A DNA stretch of 64,000 nucleotides from a virus: positions 1-64,000 of IMG/VR virus record IMGVR_UViG_3300036828_000547. One strand, 5' to 3'. The notes beneath the pieces were generated by a model that had not been told where the DNA came from, ran no database searches, and was given only the letters and a program-made list of their open reading frames with translations. Position numbers and translations under genes: made by a program. The first letter of the stretch is position 1. Each line of letters opens with the position of its first letter. Shown in pieces: positions 2,362-55,529 of the stretch.

Positions 2362-2598
2362 ATGGCAAAGAGATCGAACACCACGGAACAAGAAGAGGAA
2401 CAAGTTGTGGCAGACGAACCAGTAGTCATCGAATCTTCGGTAGAGTCCCATCCCTCAACAGACTTTGTCCAGACCCCTGTTCTACTTCCCCTATATTCCA
2501 ATCTCATGGACAGAGGCTATCAGCTCACCCGTGCTGGTCATTTCTATCAGAAAAAAGTACAAGAGATGATGAGGTCTCTTGGTAAAAAGAGATACTGA
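2362..2598 (+). CDS. hypothetical protein
   Basis: AGGAG RBS; TGATG overlap with terL. Confidence 0.7.
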   Translation: MAKRSNTTEQEEEQVVADEPVVIESSVESHPSTDFVQTPVLLPLYSNLMDRGYQLTRAGHFYQKKVQEMMRSLGKKRY

Positions 2599-3887
2599 TG
2601 AATATCCACGTTTCCGAACCTAAGACTATTCATCTGCCTCGGTTTCATGATGGACAAGTGGAAGCATTCAATGTTCCTGCCCGGTTCAAGGCTCTGCGAT
2701 GCGGACGACGGTGGGGCAAGACTCAGTTTCTGAAAACGATAGCGTGCGATTTTGCGGCCAAAGGTGCTCAAGTCGGTTGGTTTGTTCCAAACTATCGTTA
2801 TGCATCTGAAGCCTACTCTGAGACTGAATTTACACTGGAACCGGCAGTCAAGTCTAGTTCCAAAAATCTTGGTATCATTCATACAACGACTGGTGGCCGG
2901 ATTGAACTATGGACGTTGGAAGATGAAAAGGCAGGTCGGTCTCGTCGATATCACCTAGCTATCATTGATGAGGCCGCGTTCACTAAAAGAAATACGATTG
3001 ATATTTGGACCAAAGCCATACGGCCGACATTGTTGGATTTTCGTGGTGCTGCGATCATTGCTTCAAATACCAACGGTATCAACGAGGATAATTTTTTCTG
3101 GCGAATTTGTAACTTACCGGAATATGGATTTGTTGAATATCACGCTCCTTCTCATAGCAATCCATTCCTCCCTGCGGATGAGTTAGAACGTCTCGAGCAT
3201 GATAATCACCCGCTCGTGTACGCGCAGGAGTATATGGCGGAGTTTGTTGATTGGTCTGGTGAAGCATTTTTCTCATTAAATAATTTGCTGACCGAAGGTA
3301 AGCCAGAGCCATTTCCATCTCGTTGTTTATATGTCTTTGCGACCTTGGATACTGCTGTAAAAACAGGAAAAGAAAACGATGGCACAGGCGTCATCTATTG
3401 GGCCTATGAGCAATTGGGGGATGAGAAATGGCTTAAAATCATTGACTATGAATACTTACAAATTGAAGGTTCCGTGCTCGAGCTCTGGTTGCCCGTTGTT
3501 TATCGAAATTTGGACGAGTATGCCACTGCCTGTGGAGCTCGTTTGGGTAGCAAGGGATGTCTTATCGAAGATAAAGCATCAGGATCTATACTTATCCAAC
3601 AAGCTCGAAGACGAAATTTACCCGTTGGTGAACTACCCCAGAAACTGACGCAGTTAGGGAAATCAGAACGTGCGATCAACGTCAGTGGGTACGTGTTTCG
3701 TGGTCAGGTTAGAATTCTTGAAACTGCCTACAACCGCATCATAACTTACAAGCAAGTCTCAAAGAATCATTTGCTTGGACAGGTTCTAGGTTTCCGTGTT
3801 GGTGATGTCGAAGATCGGCCAGACGACCTGCTAGACTGTTTCACATACGGAGTTGCTATCTCACTCGGTAACTTTGAAGGGTACTAA
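2598..3887 (+). CDS. terL: terminase large subunit
   Basis: Walker A CGRRWGKT, Walker B IIDEAAF, QEYMAEF, nuclease motifs LDTA/IEDKASG/DDLLD. Confidence 0.95.
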   Translation: MNIHVSEPKTIHLPRFHDGQVEAFNVPARFKALRCGRRWGKTQFLKTIACDFAAKGAQVGWFVPNYRYASEAYSETEFTLEPAVKSSSKNLGIIHTTTGGRIELWTLEDEKAGRSRRYHLAIIDEAAFTKRNTIDIWTKAIRPTLLDFRGAAIIASNTNGINEDNFFWRICNLPEYGFVEYHAPSHSNPFLPADELERLEHDNHPLVYAQEYMAEFVDWSGEAFFSLNNLLTEGKPEPFPSRCLYVFATLDTAVKTGKENDGTGVIYWAYEQLGDEKWLKIIDYEYLQIEGSVLELWLPVVYRNLDEYATACGARLGSKGCLIEDKASGSILIQQARRRNLPVGELPQKLTQLGKSERAINVSGYVFRGQVRILETAYNRIITYKQVSKNHLLGQVLGFRVGDVEDRPDDLLDCFTYGVAISLGNFEGY

Positions 3888-9491: not shown

Positions 9492-10496
9492 ATGGCAGCA
9501 GGTAGCGCAAGCGTCGACACTCTACTCGCCGACGCAATTTCTAAAATGGATGGACTTTCAAAGAGAATGGATGCTCTTGAAACAGGAGAAGGGAGTAAGA
9601 ACCCTATTAAGGGTGATGCTGTCAAGAAATCTGATGATGACGATGATAAGAAGAATGATGCAGTCAAAAAGGCTGATGATGACGACGATAAGAAAGATGA
9701 CGCCACCAAACCTAAGACTCACATCTGTGATGATGATGATGACAAAAAGGATGATGCAGCAACAGTGAAGTTTGGTGATGATGGTGAGCTCGAGATTAAA
9801 CACGAGCCTGGAGAAAAGAAAGGCGACAAAAAGAAGAAGTCAGATTCTGTAAAGGCAGATTCGAAGAAAGCAGATGCCAAGAAGGCTGATGCCAAAAAGG
9901 CTGATGCCAAAAAGGCTGATGATGATGACGACGACGATGACAAAAAGGATGATGACACCAAAGATGATGATGACGATGATGATAAGAAGGATGATGCTGT
10001 TAAGGCTGATTCCGTCTCTGATTTGCGTCGTCAAATGGCTGAACAATCGGCAACCATCAGGCGTCTTGAGTCCTTGATGAAACCCAAAAGTGATGATGAA
10101 CATGCTGCTTTTGCGGATGCTCAAGCTCGAGCTGATACGGTCTTCAATGGTTTTGGGCAACGAGCGCCTCGGCCTCTTGAGGGCGAAGCTCTTGTTGACT
10201 ATCGCAAGAGGCTCGCTACGAAGTTGAAGAGCTATTCACCGGCCTGGAAGAATGTTAAGTTCTCCGTGCTTCCGGAAGAGGCTTTCAGTATTGCGGAAAC
10301 TCAAGTATATTCAGACGCAACCGCAGCAGCTTCTAGTCCGACGGATCTTGGGGCTGGTGAACTTAGAATGGTTACGAAGGTCGACCCAACAACCGGCGTT
10401 CGGACCAATGTCTTCTACGGAAAGGAGTCGTTTGTCAAAGCAATGGGTCGTCCGGGACGAAGGGTTGCCTCCTTCCGTACCTTGGCTTCTCAGTAA
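9492..10496 (+). CDS. capsid scaffolding protein
   Basis: AGGAGG RBS; D/K low-complexity tracts; position between protease and capsid genes. Confidence 0.75.
   Translation: MAAGSASVDTLLADAISKMDGLSKRMDALETGEGSKNPIKGDAVKKSDDDDDKKNDAVKKADDDDDKKDDATKPKTHICDDDDDKKDDAATVKFGDDGELEIKHEPGEKKGDKKKKSDSVKADSKKADAKKADAKKADAKKADDDDDDDDKKDDDTKDDDDDDDKKDDAVKADSVSDLRRQMAEQSATIRRLESLMKPKSDDEHAAFADAQARADTVFNGFGQRAPRPLEGEALVDYRKRLATKLKSYSPAWKNVKFSVLPEEAFSIAETQVYSDATAAASSPTDLGAGELRMVTKVDPTTGVRTNVFYGKESFVKAMGRPGRRVASFRTLASQ
9615..10010 (+). repeat. coding tandem repeats (KKADA, DDDDDKKDD)
   Basis: AAGGCTGATGCCAAA-type 15-mers and GAT/GAC runs. Confidence 0.85.
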
Positions 10497-41283: not shown

Positions 41284-41709
41284 TTAAAACCTGACTTCTA
41301 AAGTTAAGATCTTTGAAATTTCATCCCAATTCCAGTTGCTCGGTCCTCCTCCCCAACACATTGCAGTTGTTCCATTCAACCCATCATAATAAAGAGCTTC
41401 AGCTTGGTCGCCAGACATGAGCCACAACTCATCCAGATGATTATACTTTACGGCTGAAGGAGTACGACGCACAGCGATCCACGCGTTGCCTCCATACCGG
41501 CAACGACGCATGAGCCATGCAACTTGTAGTGGTTTGATTACAACAAAGAAGATTGTGGTTTGTTTGAATTCTATCCAACCTTGAATACCGGTTGGTGTAC
41601 AGAATTCAGAATCAGGGACGCCACTGGCAGTCCCGGCAGTCTCGATACTGGACCATTGCCATGCCTTAAATTTTTGACGAAATAGTGGTCTTAAGCCACC
41701 ATCCTTCAT
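41284..41709 (-). CDS. PD-(D/E)xK nuclease (VRR-NUC/Holliday junction resolvase-like)
   Basis: IET...SGVPD....WIEFK...PLQVAW. Confidence 0.8.
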   Translation of the reverse strand: MKDGGLRPLFRQKFKAWQWSSIETAGTASGVPDSEFCTPTGIQGWIEFKQTTIFFVVIKPLQVAWLMRRCRYGGNAWIAVRRTPSAVKYNHLDELWLMSGDQAEALYYDGLNGTTAMCWGGGPSNWNWDEISKILTLEVRF

Positions 41710-42491
41710 GACTGTAAGATAGAATCCAATGTAAATTTTAGGTCTTCGTCAAGATTAGATTGTCCCCTTAGCCATTGAAGATAGTCTCTAGGGATCTGAC
41801 TAAAGTCAGTCCCTTTATGCTTACCGAATCCAATGTTTTGTAATCGTTGTGGAGTATTTGCAATCCGATACAATTCTTCTGGAGAATGTTTCTCTAGCAT
41901 TTTTTGTAAGATACCGACAGTTGTTGCAACATCATAAAGAGCTTGATGCGGAGCTCTTTGTTTGATAGTTGGTGCCATTCCCAAATTTGGTTTTATCCCA
42001 AGCCAATAGCGAAGAACTTGATTAGCATGACCGGGAGCTTCTGGCCAGATTCGTTTAGCTATGCGAAGAGTACAGATCCATGGGTTTGTAAGTTCTGGCA
42101 AGAATTTACGATCAAAATCTACGTTATGGGCAACTAAGAAAGAATCTGGTTGGATCTCATTTAAAAGATCGGCCACAGCTTGTTCTCTTAGTATAGCTCC
42201 ACGTTCTGCGGTTAAACAGTCGGCTCTAATGTGATGAGAAGCTTGTGCGCGTGGATCCATTGGGCCAGAATATTGAATATAGTTTTCGTATGCAGAAGAT
42301 GTCACCCAATTGGCTCCATCTAGTGATACTACCATCCACGCTAATTCAATCATTTGACCTCCTGATTCAGGAAGGCCAGACGTTTCTGTGTCTAGAACAA
42401 TTAGTTTCATGTCCGGTGCCTTCGCCCATTCGCGCCATGAATTTATGTCGCTTTCTACATGAGGCCAATCAATAAATTGGTTCATGCTCAT
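41706..42491 (-). CDS. DEDDh 3'-5' exonuclease (ExoX-like) with DUF3820-like C-terminus
   Basis: LDTETSG, VAHNVDFD, HQALYD, FGKHKG...IPRDYLQW. Confidence 0.85.
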   Translation of the reverse strand: MSMNQFIDWPHVESDINSWREWAKAPDMKLIVLDTETSGLPESGGQMIELAWMVVSLDGANWVTSSAYENYIQYSGPMDPRAQASHHIRADCLTAERGAILREQAVADLLNEIQPDSFLVAHNVDFDRKFLPELTNPWICTLRIAKRIWPEAPGHANQVLRYWLGIKPNLGMAPTIKQRAPHQALYDVATTVGILQKMLEKHSPEELYRIANTPQRLQNIGFGKHKGTDFSQIPRDYLQWLRGQSNLDEDLKFTLDSILQS

Positions 42492-43133: not shown

Positions 43134-45134
43134 TTATTTCTTTAAGTCACCCCATGATTTACCGATCTTAATGTCTGTTAACATTGGGATAGTAATAGAT
43201 GGCACTGCTTTCTCCATTATCTCTGCACAGAGCTTGGCATGAGCTTGGTTACTGAAACTAAAGCATAATTCATCATGAACTTGCAACAGTGGTGTGAATC
43301 CTGCGTTATGAACATTAACCATCGCTTTCTTAATTTGTCGTGCAGCATCCCCTTGTATTTTTCGATTGAATGATTTGTGTGTGAATGAGCGTCTAAGCGC
43401 ACTGTTATGCCACGGATGTTCTGGATCATTAACTCGTTGTAGAGCTTCTTCATGTGAGCATGAAAATGTATCAATCTGCTTATTTGGGTATCTCTCTTGA
43501 TACCAACTGATATCAAAATTACGATATTCTGCTGGTTCCCACAAATTAAAATGACTTCGTGCTCCATCTATTAATTCAATATACCCTTGTCGTTTTGCCA
43601 TCCATGTATACTCATTATAGGCTTGACGAACAAATGGTAGTCTTTCATCATACTGTTTTAATGTAGATTCAGCCTCAGTTTCATCCATACCAGTCATCAA
43701 GGCAAACTTTCCAACACCGGCTCCATAACTGACTGCGAAGTTAACATCCTTGGCTCGTCTGCGCTCTAGACGAGTTATGGATGCTACATAATCATGAAAA
43801 TCAGTATTAGGATCATTGCGATACATATCCGCAGCTTGTTTCGCACCCCTCGCCCGTAACTTTTCAGCGACATAAACGATAAGCCGATATTCCTGTTGCC
43901 GGTAGTCAATGCTGCACCATTCCTCACCATCCTCAGGTTCAAAGCAAGATCGTATGAGCGGAGCCCACTCTTCATCCCGGCTAGGCATTTGTTGAAGTGG
44001 TGGATCAGAATAACTAAAGCGATGACTTCTTGCGCCACCACTTTCACTTCTAAATTGATTAACTGTTGGATAAACACGACCTTTATGGGCATATTCACAA
44101 ATATAGCCTAACAGAAACTTTTCTGCCAGTTCTGTATCATGTTTAATCTTGTGTATAAGCCGAGGAAATTCTTCCTTATAGCTTTCCATCACTTCCTTAC
44201 TGAAACTCGGATTGCCGCGTGCAGTTCGGAAGATTAAAATACCTCTTTTTTGAAACTGTTCAGAGAGCCATTGACTCTTACGTATTTCTTTGATTGTAAC
44301 TTTATTACCTGTTTCCCTACTGAGCTCATTTAGTTTAACTTCACAATTTGCCGATATACTCTTAGCTAATTTCCTAGCTCTATCTGTATTGACTTTCACC
44401 CCACGTTGTTTCATCTTCAGCGTGATAGGAAGTAAATCACGTTCGATTTGATATGCCTCGTCTAAGTATTCTGCTGATAACTGTGGCCGCAGCTTTTGAG
44501 CCAGACCCAATGTGCTCATTGCATCTTGTTCGGAATACGGTCCTACATATCTACCCGGTAAACGCCACAGACCCGCTTTTCCGGTGGCTGAATAAGCCAA
44601 TCCGGCTAAGTTTAATAATGATTCATCTTTACCGGGTAGTCCTTGCCATTGACATAGATTCTCTAGGCTAAATGAAAATTGGTTTTCATCTAGCATGGCG
44701 GCCATTGCTCCCGTGTCATCTAATAATTTGGGTGGCTCCAAACCAAAGGTGGCTTGAATCCATCCCCAATCGTATTGAAAATGATGGAATATAAATCGTG
44801 TTTGATTTTGTGCTCTAAGACACTTGAGCCAATCATAAACCTTATTATGATCAAAGCATTTTGTTTCTGGATGGCGTAAAGGGATATAGATTGATTGATC
44901 TCGCCATGCAGCAGATATTCCACAAATGTAACCAGTTCTTAAATTAGTTCGTTCATATTGGTGAAATCCAGGACCTAGGTCTTTGGCTAAAAGATCGTCA
45001 CGAGTCTCTGTATCAATGGCTACCTCAGTTTCCCGGCTAAGGTCAGGAAGCTGTTCTGGAGATTGCCAGTCACTATCAGGTGTAAATAAGGGAAGTTGAT
45101 CTGGTGAGGGTTTTCCCTTGCTTATTTTTGCCAT
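43134..45134 (-). CDS. DNA polymerase, family A, with 3'-5' exonuclease
   Basis: AIDTET; motif A DYRQQEYR; motif B RRAKDVNFAVSYG; motif C QVHDEL. Confidence 0.95.
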   Translation of the reverse strand: MAKISKGKPSPDQLPLFTPDSDWQSPEQLPDLSRETEVAIDTETRDDLLAKDLGPGFHQYERTNLRTGYICGISAAWRDQSIYIPLRHPETKCFDHNKVYDWLKCLRAQNQTRFIFHHFQYDWGWIQATFGLEPPKLLDDTGAMAAMLDENQFSFSLENLCQWQGLPGKDESLLNLAGLAYSATGKAGLWRLPGRYVGPYSEQDAMSTLGLAQKLRPQLSAEYLDEAYQIERDLLPITLKMKQRGVKVNTDRARKLAKSISANCEVKLNELSRETGNKVTIKEIRKSQWLSEQFQKRGILIFRTARGNPSFSKEVMESYKEEFPRLIHKIKHDTELAEKFLLGYICEYAHKGRVYPTVNQFRSESGGARSHRFSYSDPPLQQMPSRDEEWAPLIRSCFEPEDGEEWCSIDYRQQEYRLIVYVAEKLRARGAKQAADMYRNDPNTDFHDYVASITRLERRRAKDVNFAVSYGAGVGKFALMTGMDETEAESTLKQYDERLPFVRQAYNEYTWMAKRQGYIELIDGARSHFNLWEPAEYRNFDISWYQERYPNKQIDTFSCSHEEALQRVNDPEHPWHNSALRRSFTHKSFNRKIQGDAARQIKKAMVNVHNAGFTPLLQVHDELCFSFSNQAHAKLCAEIMEKAVPSITIPMLTDIKIGKSWGDLKK

Positions 45135-45338: not shown

Positions 45339-46412
45339 TTATTGTTCCTTGTCTTTCTTATCTTTTGTCACCACCTTTAGCGAGGGCTTTGATGGTTTTA
45401 GATATCTACGCCACATCTCTTCGAAGTCTGCACGGATATAGCATCGTTCTAGCCGCCTATATTCAGACCAACGTGTAGGTTTATTTTTGATTTGAAAATC
45501 ACTAAGTATATGAGCTAGTATGGTCAATGTTAAGCGTGACCATTCGCCTAGACCATTATCTAACTTAAATAGTCTGGCTAGAAGTGTATGACTGGGCAGC
45601 ACTTCAGCTTGTGCTTCATCAAACACTATACGCACATCATGCAGCAATTCTAATTTTCTATTGGTGGGGGCATCTTCTTTAGCAAATTGAATTGCAGCCT
45701 CACGTGCTATATCCCCACGGCCTAATGCATTTGCAATAGATATCAGTACGCGCCAGTTTTCTGCCCCACGACCCTTTGTGACTATTGGCGGCATAGTGGG
45801 GTCTAGATTCAAGTTAACTAGTTTGCTCTTAACCTGTTCGGCCCACTGTTCGATTTTTATTCCTATATTAGCTAATTCTTCAGCATAAGTGATACTGCTG
45901 AATCTCATTTTTGAATAGGAACGGTGCATACGGATAATAACTGAACGTGATAAAAGTGGGCCGGGTAAAGAGCCTATTCCTGCAAGAGCAACAGGGCCAA
46001 AAACCGGAAATAAAATCATTTCCCCATCTATCTTGCGTGGTACAACTCCATCCCTTCCATGGCCCGCGTTTAAAATACCTCTCAGGTCTTTATCCATACG
46101 CACATTATCGACTTCATCAATAAGTAATGTATGGCTCTGTGAGAAATGGTATATGGTTGACCTTGGATCTATAAGTAGTTTTGGCTTCCAAGCCATCCCT
46201 AGAAGAATTTTTAGGGCTGTGCTTTTTCCAGTCTCTTCTACCGGGCTAAGAATTGCAAGTCTAGGAGACACATCAAATTTATTATAGATGTGTGTGTGGA
46301 AAGGCCATAGCGCCATTCCAATTAGTTGATGAGGTTTTGCATCAACATGTCGTTCAAGAAAACTATGAACAAGACCAAAGATATCCTCTTCTTTTTTGAC
46401 CTTCCTTTTCAT
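45339..46412 (-). CDS. DUF3631-type AAA+ ATPase (putative replication helicase/initiator, no primase domain)
   Basis: SPRLAILSP..TGKS, LLIDEVD, GILNAGH, ALAGIG.LP..L.SRS, WRVLISIA. Confidence 0.75.
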   Translation of the reverse strand: MKRKVKKEEDIFGLVHSFLERHVDAKPHQLIGMALWPFHTHIYNKFDVSPRLAILSPVEETGKSTALKILLGMAWKPKLLIDPRSTIYHFSQSHTLLIDEVDNVRMDKDLRGILNAGHGRDGVVPRKIDGEMILFPVFGPVALAGIGSLPGPLLSRSVIIRMHRSYSKMRFSSITYAEELANIGIKIEQWAEQVKSKLVNLNLDPTMPPIVTKGRGAENWRVLISIANALGRGDIAREAAIQFAKEDAPTNRKLELLHDVRIVFDEAQAEVLPSHTLLARLFKLDNGLGEWSRLTLTILAHILSDFQIKNKPTRWSEYRRLERCYIRADFEEMWRRYLKPSKPSLKVVTKDKKDKEQ

Positions 46413-46515: not shown

Positions 46516-47313
46516 TTAGTTTTCCTGTTTGCGGAATGGAGTTTCCACGTCGCACATAGGCGCATCAACCTGACTAAGTCTCTTGTGACCTAGCATCCTT
46601 TCTGCCAATATCTGACCCCACTTTTTTATCCCTTTAAATTCAATTGCCAGTCGTTGTTTGGCAACTTCATCCATTTGGTCTACGTACAGTGACAATTGGA
46701 ACAACTCGTGACAATGTTGATTTACTTCTCTTATATGTTCATAAAACCTTTGCTTGGCGTTATCTGGCATCCGTCCAATCGGAACATCATCCTCTACAAC
46801 AATCCAAGCTTTATACCCTTCTTTTTCATTCAATTGTTGAAGCATTTCTCTTTCAGCCAATTGATGTTTGCTTAGAACCGGGGGTTGTGGTATAGTGGGT
46901 CCAGGAAAAGTTTTTTCAGCTATTTCCACAGCATGTTTACGCGGCCCGCGTAAACATACATCTTGGTTACGTGGAATTGGTTGTTCACGTAACCCAGATT
47001 CTACCAAAAAAGGGATTGTTTCTTCTCGCCAAATGTGTTGCCAAGAAGCAAGGTGAGTACGTATTAACACCTCTTTAGCTTTTTCCCTATACTTAGGATT
47101 TCCCATATTAATAAGGGAACTTCGATCTTGATGACTTATTACAGTTTTACCATATCCTTGTTCTGTTAGCCATTGCCCAAAAGATTTATCGGCACTGTGA
47201 CCTTGACCAAGGTTCTCACGTGCTTCCCACAGAGTTACCGCAAGCTCCATAGTTCCATCAACCCAATCAACTGTGACTTTTTTCCAGGCTTGGTCTAAAC
47301 GTTCCTTATACAT
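46516..47313 (-). CDS. hypothetical protein, DUF3102-like N-terminus
   Basis: AGGAG RBS at ATG 47313; LWEARE....FGQWL motif. Confidence 0.65.
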   Translation of the reverse strand: MYKERLDQAWKKVTVDWVDGTMELAVTLWEARENLGQGHSADKSFGQWLTEQGYGKTVISHQDRSSLINMGNPKYREKAKEVLIRTHLASWQHIWREETIPFLVESGLREQPIPRNQDVCLRGPRKHAVEIAEKTFPGPTIPQPPVLSKHQLAEREMLQQLNEKEGYKAWIVVEDDVPIGRMPDNAKQRFYEHIREVNQHCHELFQLSLYVDQMDEVAKQRLAIEFKGIKKWGQILAERMLGHKRLSQVDAPMCDVETPFRKQEN

Positions 47314-47331
47314 CTGTATTCTCCTAAAGAA

Positions 47332-47382
47332 AAGGCCGCACATAATAATACCATGTGCGGCCTTAGATTAGCAAATTTGATT
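47332..47382 (-). promoter_or_regulatory. promoter embedded in a terminator-like inverted repeat
   Basis: TTGCTA-18-TATTAT; the -10 lies in the loop of a 12-bp IR followed by TTCTTT. Confidence 0.6.
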
Positions 47383-47995
47383 ATGCTGTTTTTCTGTAAT
47401 AACCTTCCACAGCCCATCGTGACTTTGGTAGCCCATTCTGAGCAGCTTTTTGTCCCGGGACACTGATTGGTTTCACAATCGGTTTGGTTTCTACTACTTC
47501 CTTATTATTATTTTCAGCTTTTGGAGCTTCCTTAATATCATTCTCAGCTTTTGAAAGAATCTGACTTACTAAAGTAGCTTTAGGAGGTCCAGGCCTAAAC
47601 TTTTCTACTCGTCTCGATGACTTACGTTGCCGATTCTTCTGTTTACCTGAACGAAAGTGAATGGAAATTACTGTGGGGTGAACATCGCTCCTATTTATGT
47701 CGAACATATTTGCTAAGTCCCATGCTTCTTCTGACATGTAGAACTCAAGTTCCCATTTTTCATCACCAAAGTCTATCCATACATAGATATGATTGCCAGC
47801 TACTTCAGCTCTATAACAAGACTCAATGGCAGAATGAAGTGCCCGAACAAAGGCACAATTCCGCTTATCTCCAGGAATAGCATCGTCTATATTTTCTTGG
47901 GAAACATAGATTGTAATGCGTCTTCCTGGAGTTAGACCTAGCAAATCTTTTGCTGTATAACGAACAAAAGACGTAGCTGTATCTAGGCTTGACAT
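47381..47995 (-). CDS. hypothetical protein
   Basis: AAGGAGG RBS; IDDAIPGDKRNCAFVRAL motif. Confidence 0.7.
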   Translation of the reverse strand: MSSLDTATSFVRYTAKDLLGLTPGRRITIYVSQENIDDAIPGDKRNCAFVRALHSAIESCYRAEVAGNHIYVWIDFGDEKWELEFYMSEEAWDLANMFDINRSDVHPTVISIHFRSGKQKNRQRKSSRRVEKFRPGPPKATLVSQILSKAENDIKEAPKAENNNKEVVETKPIVKPISVPGQKAAQNGLPKSRWAVEGYYRKTA

Positions 47996-48098: not shown

Positions 48099-48533
48099 TT
48101 AGTCTTCCATTCTTGAGTGATGACCTCCATCTTCCGGTGTCCCAGGTCTATTCTGCTCTTCTGTAGCCAGAGCAAGGATTTTTGTAAGAATCTGGTGAGC
48201 ACCTTTCAGTGCCCTTTCATTTTGGTATGTACACAGTATGAATAAATATCGCTGCTCTAATTGGCTTAGATTGTTTGCTTCTGCGAACCGGTTAAGCTCC
48301 ATGTCTATCTCAACATTGTTTCGCTTAACATCGTAAGTTGCAACCTCAATCAATTTATCTAGATAATGCATTGCTTTCTGTAGATCTTGGACTCCAAGTT
48401 TCTTACGCCATCTAGCAACATGCTTGGTCGTACATCCCTCTAGGTAGCCTAGAGGGATTTTCACGCATAGATCCCAATGTTGGTATGATGTCTGATAATG
48501 ATTTCCACCAACTTGACTTTCATTCGCTGGCAT
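48099..48533 (-). CDS. DUF3310 family protein
   Basis: QVGGNHY...QHWD...YLEG...K...RWRKK.GVQDLQKAMHYL. Confidence 0.8.
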   Translation of the reverse strand: MPANESQVGGNHYQTSYQHWDLCVKIPLGYLEGCTTKHVARWRKKLGVQDLQKAMHYLDKLIEVATYDVKRNNVEIDMELNRFAEANNLSQLEQRYLFILCTYQNERALKGAHQILTKILALATEEQNRPGTPEDGGHHSRMED

Positions 48534-49125
48534 TTGGTTTCTCCCATTTCTCAATAAACCACCAGTCTTCTTCCATTCCATACACAAAGGCTGTAGGACA
48601 CTGTCTAAAAAATAACTTCAACCTAAGCGCGACATATCCTGCTAAACGAGGGCTGGGTGAGCTTTCATACACAGATTTGAGACATCTGTTGGCAATAATA
48701 AATCCATGATTATTGCCTATTGTGACTTGATCTAAACCAAACTCTGCCATTTCTACAAGTTCAATCTGTTTAAAGAATGCCTTATCAGTATCTGATAAGA
48801 CTGTTTGTCTAAAAGAATTCCAGTACTCCATCTGGGTAGCTTGAGATTTTAATTCTAAAAATTCCATCTGTTCCTTTAGTACAGGATTATCCCGCTTAAC
48901 CGGGTATGGAATATCTCCGGTAGAATGTTCTCCTATATCGTGGAACATAATATGCTGAATCATGTGTAGATCTGGTGTATTTGTAATACTAAGATAGATT
49001 CGTAAGATCTGCCAGCAGTGTTCTGCGACAGACTGCTGACCCACAATCGGCCAAGTGTGGTATCTACGAATCTGACCAGCTAATCGGATATCTAGACGTA
49101 CACATTCATCATCATTTTCTGACAT
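48520..49125 (-). CDS. HD-domain nucleotidase (YfbR-like)
   Basis: RRYHT...QSVAEH...FHDIGEHSTGDIPYPVK. Confidence 0.85.
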   Translation of the reverse strand: MSENDDECVRLDIRLAGQIRRYHTWPIVGQQSVAEHCWQILRIYLSITNTPDLHMIQHIMFHDIGEHSTGDIPYPVKRDNPVLKEQMEFLELKSQATQMEYWNSFRQTVLSDTDKAFFKQIELVEMAEFGLDQVTIGNNHGFIIANRCLKSVYESSPSPRLAGYVALRLKLFFRQCPTAFVYGMEEDWWFIEKWEKPNASE

Positions 49126-50131
49126 TGCGCCTCTCCAACCATTCACGACCAGCTTGTTTCCAGTCTGGAGCAGATACTGCTTCAACAACATCTAAAGCGT
49201 CTACCATCTTTCCATTTTTATATAGGTGATGTGCCATAGCCATTCTGAGGACTACTTCACGTAAAAACGTATTCGAAATATTTCCATCGTATATTTGCAG
49301 ATCACCATGATGCATCGCATCTACAAAGGCCATGATCTCTAATAGTTCTTCATCGAACACTAGAGGACGCTCTATCAATGGTAATTTCGGGCCATAGACA
49401 CTGGTATCTAAAAGATGGTAGTCTAATCTATCATTGATCATGTCTTTATTTAGACGCTTCTGTAAAAGTTCAATATGGTCCGTATACAAATGTAGATTAG
49501 TTGTAATCTGCCAATACTCACCAATATCAACACCAATTCTACTGGCAAGATACTCTTGTAAGATTGGAAAATGGACTGCATTCGCACCACAACATCCCCA
49601 CATCAAATCGTTAGAACGATTAAATACTACCATGTTTAGTTTACGATCCATAATCCTGAATGTGACAACAAGATTACATGGCACGGCAGAATAAGCTCTT
49701 AAGTCATCTCTACCTGCTCCCCACATTTGTAGAACCATTTGCCGGGTGGAGGGATTCTTCCGAAGCTGGTTGACGATATTATCCAACTGGTTGTATCCTA
49801 GACCATATCTCCATCTTTGCCCATAGGCATCCATCACAATACCATTGGTCGCAAACATCTTACTAAAATATGAAATGTAATTATCCAGGAATGCCCCGTC
49901 ATCCCTCCCGGCTAACATCCACATGGCTTCCATTAAATGGAAGAATGGATTGGCATCTCGGACCGGGTTTAATAAGACATGTTCTTTGGGATATGTATAA
50001 CGGATTGTAACGGGCTCAGGAAATACCAGTGCTTTTCCAATTCTGGTATCTTCTTCTACGCCATGGTCTAGAAGAAGTCCTACAGCCGCTGGAAAAGCAT
50101 CACGGAGATTATTAGCATTGATGACGTGCAT
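49112..50131 (-). CDS. thymidylate synthase homolog, likely dUMP hydroxymethylase
   Basis: RDANPFFHLMEAMWML, PCN, NRSNDLMWG..GAN (Asn suggests dUMP specificity), NLHLY; GAGGAGG RBS. Confidence 0.8.
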   Translation of the reverse strand: MHVINANNLRDAFPAAVGLLLDHGVEEDTRIGKALVFPEPVTIRYTYPKEHVLLNPVRDANPFFHLMEAMWMLAGRDDGAFLDNYISYFSKMFATNGIVMDAYGQRWRYGLGYNQLDNIVNQLRKNPSTRQMVLQMWGAGRDDLRAYSAVPCNLVVTFRIMDRKLNMVVFNRSNDLMWGCCGANAVHFPILQEYLASRIGVDIGEYWQITTNLHLYTDHIELLQKRLNKDMINDRLDYHLLDTSVYGPKLPLIERPLVFDEELLEIMAFVDAMHHGDLQIYDGNISNTFLREVVLRMAMAHHLYKNGKMVDALDVVEAVSAPDWKQAGREWLERRNVRK

Positions 50132-50960
50132 GTTTGCCCTCCTCATATGCTTTTTGCCATTGAACCATTACATCAGAACGCTCTTCCATGTCCTTCCAGA
50201 CTGACCCAGCAGTTTTGGTAACAAGAGTCACATATTCAGGGTGATACTGTTGAAGTTGTTTTGCGGCTTGTGTCTGCATCTCTTCAGTCCGATATTTACT
50301 ACATCCACCTTTCGCACCACTGCCACGTTGATTCCAAACGTATTGATATGATACACGGTTTGGATAACCTTTACGCAAGAGTTGCAATGTCAGGTCAAAA
50401 TCTTCCATAACCGGGATACGGCCAAACTCGACGCCTAACTCCTGCAATGCCTGAACATCATAAGCGTAGGCATTCATCATGCGGGTAACATCACGATACG
50501 GTTCTGGGCCTAAGAAATGATTGCTACCTTGCCGTGCGGCGAGGCCAATATGAACAAATCCTTCTGCCAGCCATTGTTCAAGTCGTAGAAACATAGCCTC
50601 TAAACGTTTAGAATCTTTTATTGTTTCAAGAGCAGGATCACTCATGATAGGTCTATAACAAAAATCCATGTCATCATCTAACATCAATATATGCCGTTCT
50701 CCACGGGATGCAGCATACTCTGTCATAATCCATTTGCGGGTGTGCGAAATGCCATAATGTTCATTAGGCACGTAAGCATCTGTTAACTTTAACATCGGAT
50801 TCTCATCTCTTATAAAGTTAATATTGTTGATATAACTAATCCGTTCATTTCTGGGAATGCACAGCACAACCTCACGCTGTGACTTCATATCAATGAAATT
50901 ACGCACTGTCACCTGTTCTTTCCAGTGCCCTCTACCACTGCTAGGAATGCAGATTAACAT
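50112..50960 (-). CDS. GT-A fold glycosyltransferase (TAGT/JGT/GREB1-like)
   Basis: ICIPSSGR, GISHTRKWI, MLDDD, EDFDLTLQLLRKG, GGCSKYRT. Confidence 0.75.
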   Translation of the reverse strand: MLICIPSSGRGHWKEQVTVRNFIDMKSQREVVLCIPRNERISYINNINFIRDENPMLKLTDAYVPNEHYGISHTRKWIMTEYAASRGERHILMLDDDMDFCYRPIMSDPALETIKDSKRLEAMFLRLEQWLAEGFVHIGLAARQGSNHFLGPEPYRDVTRMMNAYAYDVQALQELGVEFGRIPVMEDFDLTLQLLRKGYPNRVSYQYVWNQRGSGAKGGCSKYRTEEMQTQAAKQLQQYHPEYVTLVTKTAGSVWKDMEERSDVMVQWQKAYEEGKHARHQC

Positions 50961-50970
50961 ACCTCTCTCC

Positions 50971-51867
50971 TTAGATATGACGGAACACCTGCCTTGGACG
51001 ACCTATACCTAACCGAGTCTTTTCATACTTGCTAAACTCACAACAATGGTTTTGTGTATCCTGACAATGGAATGGCCCTAGATCCTTTAGTGCTTCGTTT
51101 TCTCGCAGATTTAAACATTGAATTTCGACTTGCCACTCTTTCTCATTCCAATGTGTAGCCATAAATCGATTGAGTACAGCGTTCAGACCTTTCTGGCTAC
51201 CCGGTCCCGGTGCCGCCCATGTCCACCAGTCCTCAACTTCACGCATGAATGGCAAATATTTCAGGTCTGCTACAAGTTGAGCAGCCATGAATGGACCTAG
51301 TCCATTACAGTCTTCACGAAGCCAATCGTACATCTGTTGTAGTGTTGGCGGGGTCTCCAGTAACCATTCTTTCCATTGCTCCTCCCATGGCTTCTTACAC
51401 CATTCATGGAAGTAACAGACAACCCCGACACCCTTATCGTGACCCGGCTTTCCATTTATAATGAATGCTCCTGTCACATGTGGCGTTGGAATCTTTTCTA
51501 AGCACTCAAGCAAAATTCTTATATCTCTATTGCCATCAATGTATCGTTCGAATACTGATTTCCCCCCAAAGTCTGGTTCATTAAATAAAGCATCACAAGT
51601 TGATATCCTATTGAACCACCGATAAAGGACTGTTGCCGGGAGAACCCACGCATCGTCTTGGGTGTAGGGGTTACGTATGGTTTTCTGATAATGCAGAGAA
51701 GTACGGTCTCGTTCCCGGTAAATATCTGTGAAGCGATAAAACTGTAAGATTCTATCTTCTGTCCAAGGCCAAGGCTCGCCACCAGTCTTTCTATGATATA
51801 TCTCATTTCTCTCGCGGATGAACGCGATATACCGATCGAATGGGTCTTCGATGTCAGTGATACTCAT
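50971..51867 (-). CDS. aGPT-Pplase1/HMUDK-helical family DNA base-modification protein (HhH-glycosylase-like)
   Basis: FIRER..I...K.GG..PWTEDRIL..YRFT.IYRE.DR, RWFN, GLGPFMAAQLVADL, GPGSQKGL, CEFSKY. Confidence 0.8.
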   Translation of the reverse strand: MSITDIEDPFDRYIAFIRERNEIYHRKTGGEPWPWTEDRILQFYRFTDIYRERDRTSLHYQKTIRNPYTQDDAWVLPATVLYRWFNRISTCDALFNEPDFGGKSVFERYIDGNRDIRILLECLEKIPTPHVTGAFIINGKPGHDKGVGVVCYFHEWCKKPWEEQWKEWLLETPPTLQQMYDWLREDCNGLGPFMAAQLVADLKYLPFMREVEDWWTWAAPGPGSQKGLNAVLNRFMATHWNEKEWQVEIQCLNLRENEALKDLGPFHCQDTQNHCCEFSKYEKTRLGIGRPRQVFRHI

Positions 51868-53423
51868 TCGAACAGCCTCTCAAAGTGATATCGTCTATCT
51901 GGATGTACAAGGATAAGATCTTGATATGTCCTAGTCACACCGGTATAGAAAACCCTTGTTTCTTCGTCCATATTACCAGTCCCAAATCTTTCTGCTGCCT
52001 TGGCAGTATCTGAGAGCAAGATGACCTTGTCAGCTTGCCCTCCCTTAACGCGATGGATAGTAGAAATATGTACTGAAGGAATCTGTAAAAGTGAGTTGCC
52101 ATTATTCAAAACCTTTTCTATATATTCAACATCTCTTTGTTCTATTTCTACAAAAGCTTCTTGCCATGTTCCCTGAGCCAGTAGGCCATAATCTCGTCTT
52201 AATTCGTGTAGTGTAACATCAATTGTTTCACTTTGTCCAGCTAGACGTTTCAATCTAGCTTTATGACCATAAGCAACTCCCGGTTTTTTCTTACTTGGGT
52301 TTCCTTCACCTGGAAGTAGCTCATAAATTTTGAGAGCATCGGTCGCTGGTATAGTCTTACCTTCGTGTAGATCAACCCAAGCTGTGATTGCTCTGGCATA
52401 GGTTGGTTTGATACTATTAGCATCAAAATAACGATATAGAATACCTTGACTACGGCAATATGGAATGAACTTCCGTCGTAATGATTTTACAGTACGCCCC
52501 AGCATCATCACACTCTTGCCAGAGTCTAAGATACTTGGGTCTAATTGTGATATGCCCTCTAATGTACTGCAACTACCCTCGGCTGATCGAGGGAGCCAAT
52601 GCTTTTCACGGCGATTGTAGATTTTACTAATCATACGATTAGCTAACTGATGAACAGTTGTTGGAACCCTATAGCTTTGTTTGAGAACAGTGACTTGACC
52701 GGGTAACGAAATAAACCGCGTACTCGCTCCGGCCCAAGTAAAGATTGTTTGGTCATCATCACCAGCCACGTACATTCGTTTAACGAATCTTGCTAATTGT
52801 TCAACCATCAACCATTGCAACTCACTCAAATCTTGTGCTTCATCAACAATAAGAACTTCTAGGCGTGGTGGGTCATCTATTTTAATAAACTCTTCTAGCA
52901 TATCAGTAAAATCAAGCAATTGTCGCTCTGTTTTATATTGCCTGAACTCTTTGATTATTCGTTGTGCGCGCTCAAAATCTGGTACAATAAAATCATTCTG
53001 TAACAATACAGCATCTACTGATTGTCGGGTAATACGGGCAAAGTTTTCAAAGAATAAAACTAAATCATCTCCATAGAAATTCGTATAAGTACCATCGTCA
53101 GATGATAAGCTGCCACGAATCTCGTATCCATACTCTTCACCAAACTCCTGCACTTTTCTACCGGTAAAAACCTGATTAGTGTTGAGACCTAGTTGTCTGA
53201 ACGCTGCTGAGTGCAGTGTGTTGAAATACCGAAACCGGCTGCGGGGTAGCTGAAATCGTTCACTCGCACGAGTGATGGCTTCCTCTACACCGCGCTTTGT
53301 GAATGTCATGAACCCTATGTGATCTGGTGGGATACCGCGGTCCATTTCCATGTCCACGGTATCCAACAGAGTTGTGGTTTTCCCGGTGCCGGGGGGACCG
53401 ACGAATATGGTGGGTTTTATCAC
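51864..53423 (-). CDS. UvrD/Rep-family SF1 helicase
   Basis: GPPGTGKT, VDEAQD, AGDDDQTIF, QSYR, STIHRVKG, FYTGVTR. Confidence 0.9.
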   Translation of the reverse strand: MIKPTIFVGPPGTGKTTTLLDTVDMEMDRGIPPDHIGFMTFTKRGVEEAITRASERFQLPRSRFRYFNTLHSAAFRQLGLNTNQVFTGRKVQEFGEEYGYEIRGSLSSDDGTYTNFYGDDLVLFFENFARITRQSVDAVLLQNDFIVPDFERAQRIIKEFRQYKTERQLLDFTDMLEEFIKIDDPPRLEVLIVDEAQDLSELQWLMVEQLARFVKRMYVAGDDDQTIFTWAGASTRFISLPGQVTVLKQSYRVPTTVHQLANRMISKIYNRREKHWLPRSAEGSCSTLEGISQLDPSILDSGKSVMMLGRTVKSLRRKFIPYCRSQGILYRYFDANSIKPTYARAITAWVDLHEGKTIPATDALKIYELLPGEGNPSKKKPGVAYGHKARLKRLAGQSETIDVTLHELRRDYGLLAQGTWQEAFVEIEQRDVEYIEKVLNNGNSLLQIPSVHISTIHRVKGGQADKVILLSDTAKAAERFGTGNMDEETRVFYTGVTRTYQDLILVHPDRRYHFERLFE

Positions 53424-53607: not shown

Positions 53608-54378
53608 TTAGAATGGAATATCTTCACCTTTTCCACCATCGATGGGTGCTTCAGCTTTCTTTTCACCCTCTGCGATTGCATTGCTGAATGCTATACAAGC
53701 TTTTATCTCTTCAACTGTAGATTTACCGACATCTTCAAACTTGAGGCCGAACCATTTTCCCTTGACGTTGCTTTGTGGAACAGTCGAAAGACGATATTTG
53801 TGTGCAAAAGCTGGCATGATTTTGCCGGTTGTCGGGTGCTTAAACCGGTGGAACATGGTCTGCCATTGACGTGCGAATGTGTGTTTTGTTGAACTGCATG
53901 GGAATACATATGGATCCCCATCAACTATGAGATAAAATTCTCTAGTGTCTACAATGAAATTTCCATTCCCACGTACCATGACTTCTCGTTCCTTGCCATC
54001 ATCACCGATTATTGTCTTAGCAACCATATCCATTGGTGGACTATCATGACGAGTTACAAACCCACCTCGGTTAGGAAGCCATTCAATCCATGTACGGAAC
54101 ATTTCAACAGGAATAGCCTCAATTCCTTCTTCACCGTTACGAATAGGGTCGAGGGAATTGCGTAACCAGAAGTCCCCAGCCTCTGCGCCTTCAATATAGT
54201 TATCCCCGCGTTTCTCTACTTGAGGCGACAATGCTTGTAGAACGTAGATCAAAGGTACAAGCTGATCTTCTGCCTTGAAGCTTACGCCCCTCTCAGCATA
54301 CTGTTCTGTGAGGGAAAGGTACTCATCCTGCTCGGCAGGAAGTTGTGTTTCTACTGTTTTTAGCGCCTTATCTGCCAT
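53608..54378 (-). CDS. putative single-stranded DNA-binding protein
   Basis: P.I.VLQALSPQV, IEGAEAGD, N.KGKWFG, acidic EDIPF C-terminus; AGGAGG RBS. Confidence 0.7.
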   Translation of the reverse strand: MADKALKTVETQLPAEQDEYLSLTEQYAERGVSFKAEDQLVPLIYVLQALSPQVEKRGDNYIEGAEAGDFWLRNSLDPIRNGEEGIEAIPVEMFRTWIEWLPNRGGFVTRHDSPPMDMVAKTIIGDDGKEREVMVRGNGNFIVDTREFYLIVDGDPYVFPCSSTKHTFARQWQTMFHRFKHPTTGKIMPAFAHKYRLSTVPQSNVKGKWFGLKFEDVGKSTVEEIKACIAFSNAIAEGEKKAEAPIDGGKGEDIPF

Positions 54379-54808: not shown

Positions 54809-55366
54809 TTATTTGATCTTAATCTCATCAAACACAAATACTCCTAGAAGGTCCATAGGAATTTGATGTCCTTTGAGTATCTCGGATTTTACAAACGCCT
54901 TCAATGTCATGTGATGTACAGACTCGTTTGTGTAGTATTGGACTTTGGCATCACTCAATATTTTCATAACTCGTAAACGCTCTTCATGCTCCTGCATTCC
55001 GAAGAAGATATTAATGACTGACTTGACCAAGTCACCATGGTCATTCTGCTCTAACCATTCAAATGCTGCTTGGCGCTTGTCTTCAGGAATCTTTGCATTG
55101 TAAACCGTCCCTCGTTCGGCTACGAATGCTGGATGGTTCCCCGTCGCCTCTACGGTAACACTGGAAATACGAGCTTGAGTAAACATTTCCGGCAGTTCTT
55201 CGCGCTCGATTTTCTTAATGTTGTTTTCTACGAGCTTAACTTGATTCTCCAGATCAGTTTTCTTGAGGTACGCATCACGCAATTCTGAAGCACGCTTCCG
55301 AATTGTGTTGAGGTCCACCGGCTTTTCGTAGCCTTCGAGAAGGTCTAATGCTTCTTGATCAGTCAT
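54809..55366 (-). CDS. conserved phage replication-cluster protein
   Basis: AGGAG RBS; LPEMF, AFEWL...HGDLVK, VHHMTLKAFVK motifs. Confidence 0.75.
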   Translation of the reverse strand: MTDQEALDLLEGYEKPVDLNTIRKRASELRDAYLKKTDLENQVKLVENNIKKIEREELPEMFTQARISSVTVEATGNHPAFVAERGTVYNAKIPEDKRQAAFEWLEQNDHGDLVKSVINIFFGMQEHEERLRVMKILSDAKVQYYTNESVHHMTLKAFVKSEILKGHQIPMDLLGVFVFDEIKIK

Positions 55367-55390
55367 TGGGTTGCTCCTGATAGAAAAGAT

Positions 55391-55529
55391 GCGTGGGTTT
55401 GCTTTGCAACATTGCATCGCTTCTGGTGTCCTTGGACCGACTACGACATTGCCCTCTAACTAGAAACGGCAGGACACCTTTCATTTGAGCAGAGCCTACT
55501 TCTGGCTTTGCCGAATCCGACGCCCACGC
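55391..55529. ncRNA. candidate multi-stem structured RNA/leader
   Basis: closing stem GCGTGGG/CCCACGC enclosing two 8-bp stems. Confidence 0.4.

Follow-up and report, generated by a model that had tools for sequence, protein, structure and literature searches.

We describe here five tightly packed minus-strand genes, at positions 48099-51867 of a stretch of viral DNA, that may equip a phage to carry a glycosylated 5-hydroxymethyluracil (hmU) in its genome. The window, that is, the whole stretch analysed, is 64,000 nucleotides long and comprises bases 1-64000 of a 78,660-bp IMG/VR virus record, which was assembled from a soil metagenome and is complete according to CheckV (100%); a search of sequencing runs located the stretch only in its source metagenome. 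In the reading that we consider probable, deoxyuridine monophosphate (dUMP) would be converted to 5-hydroxymethyl-dUMP (hmdUMP), incorporated, and O-glycosylated in DNA by a glycosyltransferase (GT) of the TAGT family. The original prediction for this DNA had described a contiguous operon co-oriented with helicase and polymerase genes, and all of its items were found, with the following family matches:

51864-53423, minus strand: UvrD/Rep-like SF1 helicase (PF00580, E 8e-25; phrog_1967, E 4e-64)
50971-51867, minus strand: PF18723 protein of 298 amino acids (HMUDK_hel, formerly aGPT-Pplase clade 1; E 1.2e-38)
50112-50960, minus strand: TAGT-family GT-A glycosyltransferase of 282 amino acids (PF20691, E 8.3e-15; phrog_842, E 2e-40)
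49112-50146, minus strand: thymidylate-synthase homolog (PF00303, E 2.8e-26; phrog_5131, E 1e-92)
48520-49191, minus strand: YfbR-like HD-domain protein (PF12917, E 9e-8; PF13023, E 2e-7; phrog_6047, E 1e-25)
48099-48587, minus strand: DUF3310-related protein (phrog_5839, E 2.4e-31; phrog_236, 'nucleotide kinase', E 3.6e-12; Pfam DUF3310, E 0.004, below cutoff)
43134-45134, minus strand: family-A DNA polymerase with a 3'-5' exonuclease domain (PF00476, E 8e-44; PF01612, E 2e-6)

Within the module all family assignments exceed the curated cutoffs except that of DUF3310. Neighbouring genes overlap or lie at most 10 nt apart: the helicase stop and the PF18723 start overlap by 4 nt, a 10-nt gap follows, and the remaining junctions are short overlaps. 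The likely true starts are Met6 for the thymidylate-synthase (TS) homolog (50131), Met23 for the HD protein (49125) and Met19 for the DUF3310 protein (48533).

In the proposed pathway the TS homolog would convert dUMP to hmdUMP, as its orthology suggests. The HD nucleotidase would then remove competing thymidine and uridine nucleotides, and the DUF3310 protein might, together with host kinases, raise hmdUMP to the triphosphate. The family-A polymerase, which must accept this triphosphate (hmdUTP) in such a scheme, would put 5-hydroxymethyldeoxyuridine (hmdU) in the place of T. Finally, judging from its family, its place in the gene order and its mutual exclusion with a kinase route, the TAGT enzyme would move a sugar from a host nucleoside-diphosphate (NDP) sugar to the oxygen of the 5-hydroxymethyl group of hmU in double-stranded DNA, and the product would be a 5-(glycosyloxymethyl)uracil resembling base J. 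DNA modified in this way would be protected from restriction endonucleases and from glycosylases directed at hmU. We favour direct glycosylation of hmU in DNA because of the group to which the TS homolog belongs, the homology of the GT to DNA glycosyltransferases and the exclusion between TAGT and kinase genes in related loci, as developed below.

The thymidylate-synthase homolog and the glycosyltransferase

The TS homolog is the only gene of its family in the record, and no ThyX was found there. It has a catalytic Cys157, Asp at the position of E. coli D169, Asn189 at that of N177 and Ala at that of L143. In E. coli ThyA numbering, N177 accounts for the choice of dUMP and an Asp there for that of deoxycytidine monophosphate (dCMP), 5-hydroxy synthases being marked by D169N; those of the RB69 gp48 type combine Asn at D169 with Asp at N177 (PMC13326640). 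The Asn at the specificity position had been noticed before and is borne out by our alignment, in which 'GANAVHF' of the window falls on 'PFNIASY' of canonical TS and a T4-like dCMP hydroxymethylase has Asp in the same place. Asn at N177 together with Asp at D169 thus indicates a dUMP enzyme and sets the protein apart from dCMP enzymes and from 5-hydroxy synthases. Over its full length, including a C-terminal extension, the protein is 40% identical to PaMx11 gp51, with which it is syntenic, and to PhiJL001 gp24, and the DNA of PaMx11 and M6 contains hmdU-derived bases (PMC8989533, PMC5889632). In a tblastn search of the phage collection Pseudomonas phages of the Abidjanvirus/YuA type ranked first, and ViI-like genes annotated as 'deoxyuridylate hydroxymethyltransferase' came next. 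The C-terminal extension, of about 100 amino acids, is missing from the T-even TS and the dCMP hydroxymethylase compared, nothing in our protein corresponds to the Trp loop of canonical TS, E. coli W80/W83 (both in alignment A4), and the residue after the catalytic Cys is Asn, not His, as in the hydroxymethylase group. With these features, the TS homolog is predicted to be a dUMP hydroxymethylase of the M6/YuA/PaMx11-like group.

Some observations weigh against the route that we favour. The residue at the L143 position is the main caveat at the sequence level, since a TS that forms a methyl group has a bulky residue here and hydroxymethylases have an acidic one, and the residue correlates with a methyl versus a hydroxymethyl product (PMC13326640). 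It is Asp in all nine kinase-type homologs, in YuA gp17, in one ViI-like enzyme and in 33 of the 34 loci classed as 'other', and Ala in the window, whose close relatives have A, S or I; among the GT-type TS homologs as a group there are 20 with Asp, 9 with Ala, 6 with Ser, 2 with Ile and four singletons. This makes the hydroxymethylase call less secure for the subclade of the window. In addition, neither a dCMP deaminase nor a dCTP deaminase/dUTPase to supply dUMP was found in the record, and in these dUMP-feeding genes PaMx11 and PhiJL001 differ from the window phage. As for the GT, its activity, acceptor and sugar are all deduced indirectly, and our literature search returned no TAGT shown to act on hmU, the characterised members acting on 5-hydroxymethylcytosine (hmC) or glucosyl-hmC. 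Lastly, an invariant Cys-Glu pair in the PF18723 protein suggests further chemistry at C5, so that the end product may be something other than a plain glycoside.

The L143 residue bears on a quite unlikely alternative, namely that the TS homolog makes thymidine monophosphate (dTMP) or another C5 product, that the DNA has ordinary T, and that the GT targets a protein, a small molecule or another base. The Ala of the window, or the Ile of two relatives, set against the Asp of proven hydroxymethylases, would fit such a case, and in a survey of phage GT-A and GT-B contigs about 65% had no DNA-modification neighbour (preprint 10.1101/2023.12.21.572611). However, this alternative is hard to reconcile with an enzyme that is 40% identical and syntenic to hydroxymethylases from phages with proven hmdU-derived DNA, with the presence of Asp in half of the GT-type TS homologs, and with a GT that is homologous to DNA glycosyltransferases and is found wedged between PF18723 and TS genes, in either order, in dozens of loci. 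Moreover, Ala differs from the Leu that excludes water in true TS and, as the lack of the Trp loop, the Asn after Cys and the long C-terminal extension are shared with hydroxymethylases, we keep the hydroxymethylase call.

Across the families, almost all homologs of the kinase and methyltransferase types have Asp at the L143 position, whereas about half of those of the GT type have other residues there (A, S, I, G, T, P, Q), a variability that may reflect altered water access to the methylene intermediate. In the window, bases 49682-49690 are the codons Ser-Ala-Val before the catalytic Cys157.

The GT scores 55.7 bits against PF20691 (cutoff 27.5). Its AlphaFold model, built with 36 homologs, has a predicted local distance difference test score (pLDDT) of 93 and a GT-A fold; in the DxD motif, D95-D96-D97, the first two residues are invariant among these homologs and the third nearly so. 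Comparison with viral TAGT models in BFVD gave TM scores of 0.70-0.86, including a beta-glucosyl-HMC alpha-glucosyltransferase, and the GT profile matched the Tequatrovirus T6-type beta-glucosyl-HMC alpha-glucosyltransferase with an hhalign probability of 99.1% over 224 columns. That enzyme is a TAGT which has DNA as its substrate (PMC13390438). More than 200 metagenomic homologs of the window's GT were found, and a phmmer search of PDB sequences gave no match. The protein also had no match to membrane-protein families, no search being aimed at transmembrane segments or secretion signals. Taken together, the GT is predicted to be a DNA hmU glycosyltransferase.

Sugar transfer to hmU, either in DNA or at the nucleotide level, had been envisaged from the outset, and the two options fared differently. 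Glycosylation of hmdUMP or hmdUTP before incorporation could be suspected from the neighbours, as the TS, HD and DUF3310 proteins act, or probably act, on mononucleotides. Nevertheless, T-even GTs and TET-associated phage GTs act on polymeric DNA (PMC8256090, PMC13390438), and the polymerase would need to accept a hexosylated dNTP; the many conserved Arg and Lys residues of the GT family are noted on the same side. We regard transfer before incorporation as highly improbable, and it is direct glycosylation in DNA that the context supports.

The absence of a P-loop kinase, first remarked for the window, extends to the whole 78,660-bp record, in which PaMx11 gp49, PF18748 and PF13671 had no match as probes for the 5-hmdU DNA kinase (5-HMUDK) and AAA_33-like kinases. 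When a Walker A regular expression was run over all open reading frames (ORFs) of the record, the helicase carried the only canonical motif inside a recognised protein; two more strings fell in small or unannotated ORFs (65821-66108 and 76265-76753), one of which was scanned and gave no family match. In the 14.7 kb of the record past the window we found no kinase or nucleotide-metabolism gene. The record likewise yielded no match to PaMx11 gp46 or PF18724, probes for the amino-acid:DNA transferase (AADT, clade 2), or to PF12851 of the TET/JBP dioxygenases. The lack of radical SAM genes (SAM, S-adenosylmethionine), likewise remarked for the window, was confirmed over the record; no search was aimed at enzymes dependent on pyridoxal phosphate (PLP).

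The two remaining genes of the module are syntenic with PaMx11 gp52 and PhiJL001 gp25 (HD) and with PaMx11 gp53 and PhiJL001 gp26 (DUF3310). Phages with hmU, such as SPO1, possess dTMP- and dUTP-clearing enzymes, and by analogy the HD protein, of the YfbR 5'-deoxynucleotidase family, probably clears competing dTMP/dUMP-type nucleotides. The DUF3310 protein reaches 17.5 bits in Pfam (cutoff 24), its PhiJL001 ortholog lies above the cutoff, BLASTP to T7 gp1.7 was not significant and phmmer against PDB sequences gave no match. In T7 gene 1.7 (locus L021 of our sample, 567-1157), DUF3310 (E 4.5e-23, residues 122-184) is the sole Pfam match of the gp1.7 nucleotide kinase, which explains why PHROGs containing DUF3310 are labelled 'nucleotide kinase'. 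The T7 enzyme has no classical nucleotide-binding motif. In this sense, a non-P-loop nucleotide kinase may be present in the window phage, and the DUF3310 protein is a plausible but weakly supported candidate for an hmdUMP kinase.

The PF18723 protein and the decoration slot

The PF18723 protein scores 133.6 bits (cutoff 25) and covers profile positions 4-274 of 281. The present Pfam name of this family is '5-hmdU DNA kinase, helical domain', and sources still label it 'alpha-glutamyl/putrescinyl thymine pyrophosphorylase clade 1'. In the window it is a stand-alone protein without a P-loop domain and, in our view, neither a kinase helical domain nor an appendage of a kinase. Listed as aGPT-Pplase1-like in the original prediction, it differs from the transferase at work in the known pathways, which belongs to clade 2 (AADT); M6 gp55, a PF18723 member of clade 1, is dispensable for the in vitro reaction of kinase plus AADT (PMC8989533). 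The model of the window protein (pLDDT 93) is all-helical, with a helix-hairpin-helix glycosylase-like fold. The closest PDB entry is the PaMx11 gp46 glycinyltransferase PUGT (8z2n; Z 10.3, 220 residues, root-mean-square deviation 4.2), tied with helix-hairpin-helix DNA glycosylases and a queuine salvage hydrolase at Z 7-10, with unrelated rows down to Z 4. A phmmer search of PDB sequences gave no match, so the link to PUGT comes from fold comparison only.

Cys276-Glu277 was invariant in sets of 14 and of 24 sequences, GT-type and kinase-type alike. An hhalign comparison with PaMx11 gp46, very weak (probability 0.2%, 19 columns) and used only for the position of the Cys, alongside the fold match, places Cys276 on PUGT Cys247, the nucleophile proposed to attack C6 (PMC11472151). 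A detectable kinase is lacking in 79 of the 90 PF18723 loci that we compared. Since PF18723 accompanies the hydroxymethylase under all decorations, mostly without a kinase, it is probably an enzyme that acts on hmU or a derivative of it in DNA. We regard it as a Cys-bearing AADT paralog that is retained beside the hydroxymethylase whichever decoration is used.

These features bring in a further, unlikely possibility, in which the sugar is an intermediate: the GT would activate hmU, Cys276 of PF18723 would attack C6, and the C5 substituent would be replaced, rearranged or reduced, so that the final base would not be simple glycosyl-hmU and could be thymine, for instance, or the adduct of a different nucleophile. 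The conserved Cys-Glu, the placement of the Cys on PUGT C247 with PUGT as the closest fold, and the position of the GT in the exact place of the activating kinase of other clusters are all compatible with such chemistry. In phiW-14, an unassigned enzyme reportedly turns hmU within the DNA polymer into thymine, a precedent of this kind. Against it, phosphate is a far better leaving group than a glycoside, and in the same weak alignment the PUGT metal ligands E243 and T244 fall on the conserved Gln272 and Asn273. PF18723 occurs also with kinase plus AADT, where M6 gp55 is not needed in vitro (PMC8989533), and with methyltransferase slots, so its role is probably common to all clusters and not GT-specific. 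Furthermore, the sugar tailoring found in relatives would be pointless unless the sugar remained on the DNA. An undescribed route coupling the GT to the PF18723 protein had also been suggested, and no evidence for it was obtained; a co-fold of the two proteins scored 0.00, without controls, and weighs neither way on binding.

The order helicase-PF18723-TAGT-TS-HD-DUF3310-PolA is kept in 14 IMG/VR loci retrieved with the GT, at GT identities of 44-83%, which argues that the arrangement is not due to chance. When the scan was widened with a PF18723 alignment, at least 555 stretches gave a match and 80 of them were retrieved; the counts given here refer to 90 non-duplicate PF18723 loci, a sample that is biased to relatives of the window and whose loci are not independent. 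In these loci the slot beside the PF18723-TS pair held:

TAGT glycosyltransferase: 37 loci
class-I SAM methyltransferase: 23 loci
P-loop kinase: 11 loci (5 with AADT)
radical SAM/SPASM enzyme: 10 loci
FkbM methyltransferase: 5 loci
GT-B-like glycosyltransferase: 3 loci
nothing recognised: 8 loci

None of the 90 loci has a TAGT and a kinase together. The GT of the window occupies the decoration slot that holds 5-HMUDK and AADT in PaMx11/M6-like phages. In a FastTree phylogeny of PF18723 the window falls in a fully supported group, of 16-18 rows, made up of GT-type sequences alone; elsewhere on the tree GT-type and kinase-type rows are interspersed, and the supported branches force at least three changes, a pattern that fits repeated swapping of decoration modules on a stable core.

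The slot of GT-type relatives, between PF18723 and the TS, contains further genes. A GDP-mannose 4,6-dehydratase (E 7e-107) lies directly upstream of the GT, and there are also a second TAGT, an FkbM methyltransferase and radical SAM/SPASM enzymes. Extra slot genes map to L015:5000-6007; L011:1044-1775 and 2586-3596; L010:2133-2807; and L016:7885-9045 and 9606-10178 (L numbers designate loci of the sample), and include a dCTP-deaminase-like gene. Genes of this type accompany glycan diversification on phage DNA (preprint 10.1101/2023.12.21.572611), and their presence suggests that different glycans may be built on one base.

The class with a SAM methyltransferase directly upstream of PF18723-TS, without GT or kinase, is represented by L037:6168-7007, L043:6156-6995 and 21 further loci. 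These enzymes may O-methylate hmU to methoxymethyl-uracil or may have another target; our literature search found no description of such clusters.

Genes around the module

In related loci the helicase is conserved upstream of the module, and the polymerase follows directly after DUF3310. In the window, three further genes lie between these last two:

47381-47995, minus strand: ORF of 204 amino acids, without a Pfam or PHROG match
46516-47343, minus strand: ORF of 275 amino acids, without a Pfam or PHROG match
45339-46412, minus strand: DUF3631 gene (PF12307, E 5.9e-21)

The two family-less ORFs were considered as parts of the module and rejected, as they match only hypothetical phage clusters in the Atlas and are absent in relatives. 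The whole segment 45339-47995 is absent from all related loci, where the polymerase lies within about 0.3-1 kb of DUF3310, and it looks like an insertion. Near the polymerase, which has its own exonuclease domain, there is a DnaQ/RNase T-like exonuclease gene (41706-42491; phrog_192 'DNA polymerase exonuclease subunit', E 9e-44). Upstream of the helicase we found homologs of Pam3 gp34 (53608-54378; PF23977, E 1.4e-32) and of Pam3 gp33 (54809-55417; DUF7307, E 1.1e-23), the former being conserved in related loci and in Sonora. Beyond the window, at 72177-73913 of the record, the early region on the plus strand encodes a primase of the archaeo-eukaryotic type (phrog_21866, E 1.5e-46; PF22548 at cutoff).

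Relation to known systems and significance

The closest described clusters are those of PaMx11, M6 and YuA (Mesyanzhinovviridae) and of Salmonella phage ViI (Lee et al. 2018, 2021; PMC5889632, PMC8989533). PaMx11 encodes an AADT (gp46), an FAD (flavin adenine dinucleotide) lyase (gp47), an acetyltransferase (gp48) and the kinase (gp49) (functions: PMC8989533), and continues with gp50 (PF18723), gp51 (TS homolog), gp52 (HD) and gp53 (DUF3310), followed by the polymerase. The window has the equivalents of gp50-53 in the same order and then a family-A polymerase, with 40% identity for TS and 33% for PF18723, and the order PF18723-TS-HD-DUF3310-PolA is common to the window, PaMx11, Sonora, YuA and PhiJL001. 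A megablast of the cluster against the phage collection gave no match. The logic would be that of PaMx11, M6 and ViI, in which a hydroxymethyl handle is installed at the nucleotide level and decorated on DNA. Unlike these phages and YuA, the window phage lacks 5-HMUDK, AADT, radical SAM, FAD and acetyltransferase tailoring enzymes and has a TAGT instead, its TS has Ala and not the Asp of PaMx11, YuA and ViI-like enzymes at the L143 position, and its predicted product is an O-glycoside and not an amino-acid-derived side chain.

The only cultured phage found with the same combination is PhiJL001, a marine siphovirus of Alphaproteobacteria (Keylargovirus, Mesyanzhinovviridae; AY576273). It encodes PF18723 (gp19), a TAGT (gp22, E 2.7e-53, annotated as a glucosyl transferase in the GenBank record), TS (gp24), HD (gp25) and DUF3310 (gp26) proteins and then the polymerase, and no kinase was found in the module region examined. 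It is distant from the window (28% identity for the GT, 32% for PF18723) and has genes that the window phage lacks, namely gp20, gp21, the Nmad5 protein gp23, a dCMP deaminase and a ribonucleotide reductase. Our literature search, which did not reach the 2005 genome paper, found no description of the composition of its DNA.

As in the T-even hmC route (gp42 plus DNA glucosyltransferases), TS-family hydroxymethylation would be followed by polymerase incorporation and by a GT acting on DNA, and the GTs are homologous (PMC13390438). Here, in contrast, the pyrimidine would be U and not C (Asn versus Asp at the specificity position), and whereas the T6 TAGT extends an existing sugar by a second glucose, the single TAGT of the window must add the first sugar to the base.

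The original prediction called the product base J-like. An O-glycosylated 5-hydroxymethyluracil in DNA made by a GT-A fold transferase is indeed what we predict, as in kinetoplastid base J (JBP1/2 plus JGT), and phage GT-A enzymes have been reported as structural homologs of JGT (preprint 10.1101/2023.12.21.572611). Glucose, however, cannot be read from the sequence, nor can any other sugar, and relatives have a GDP-mannose dehydratase, a second GT or a methyltransferase. The route would also differ from that of base J, as the hydroxymethyl group would come from a TS-like enzyme before replication and not from TET/JBP acting on DNA, and replacement of T would probably be global versus about 1% at specific sites. 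Clusters of phage T-dioxygenase (5mYOX) plus GT are likewise expected to place sugars on the 5hmU of phage DNA, but in them T is oxidised after replication, unlike the pre-replicative supply of hmdUTP proposed here; in the accessible part of that source no glycosylated hmU product is reported either (PMC13229309).

All parts of the module belong to known families. Iyer et al. are said to have defined TAGT, aGPT-Pplase1-3 and Nmad5 in 2013, and may already show this neighbourhood. The literature search, which did not reach that article, found no description of a kinase-less and AADT-less cluster of the Mesyanzhinovviridae type, of the swappable slot, or of the ever-present Cys-bearing PF18723 protein. 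Neighbourhoods of GT-A and TS-homolog genes have already been counted in bulk (preprint 10.1101/2023.12.21.572611), and glycosylated hmU has not been reported from any phage according to PMC6449724 and our search.

Tentatively, and with less confidence than in the route itself, we put forward a broader proposal. A large group of uncultured soil and water phages, of about 60-85 kb, might carry glycosyl-hmU for T, made by a minimal route without TET/JBP or a DNA kinase, on an invariant core of PF18723 and hydroxymethylase with a swappable slot (kinase plus AADT, GT-A, GT-B, SAM methyltransferase or radical SAM), in which PF18723 would carry out a Cys-dependent reaction on hmU in DNA, for example the conversion of leftover hmU to T. 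The clade-1 aGPT-Pplase would then be a catalytic-looking, universally retained partner of the hydroxymethylase. The candidate system is common, as indicated by the abundance of GT homologs and by the TAGT standing beside the core in more than a third of the PF18723 loci. Its enzymes may provide new DNA glycosyltransferases for 5hmU labelling, and may be useful for probing the evasion of restriction and of glycosylases. Glycosylated hmU is otherwise known as base J in trypanosomatids and, if our reading is true, these phages would hold the first natural base-J-type DNA in viruses.

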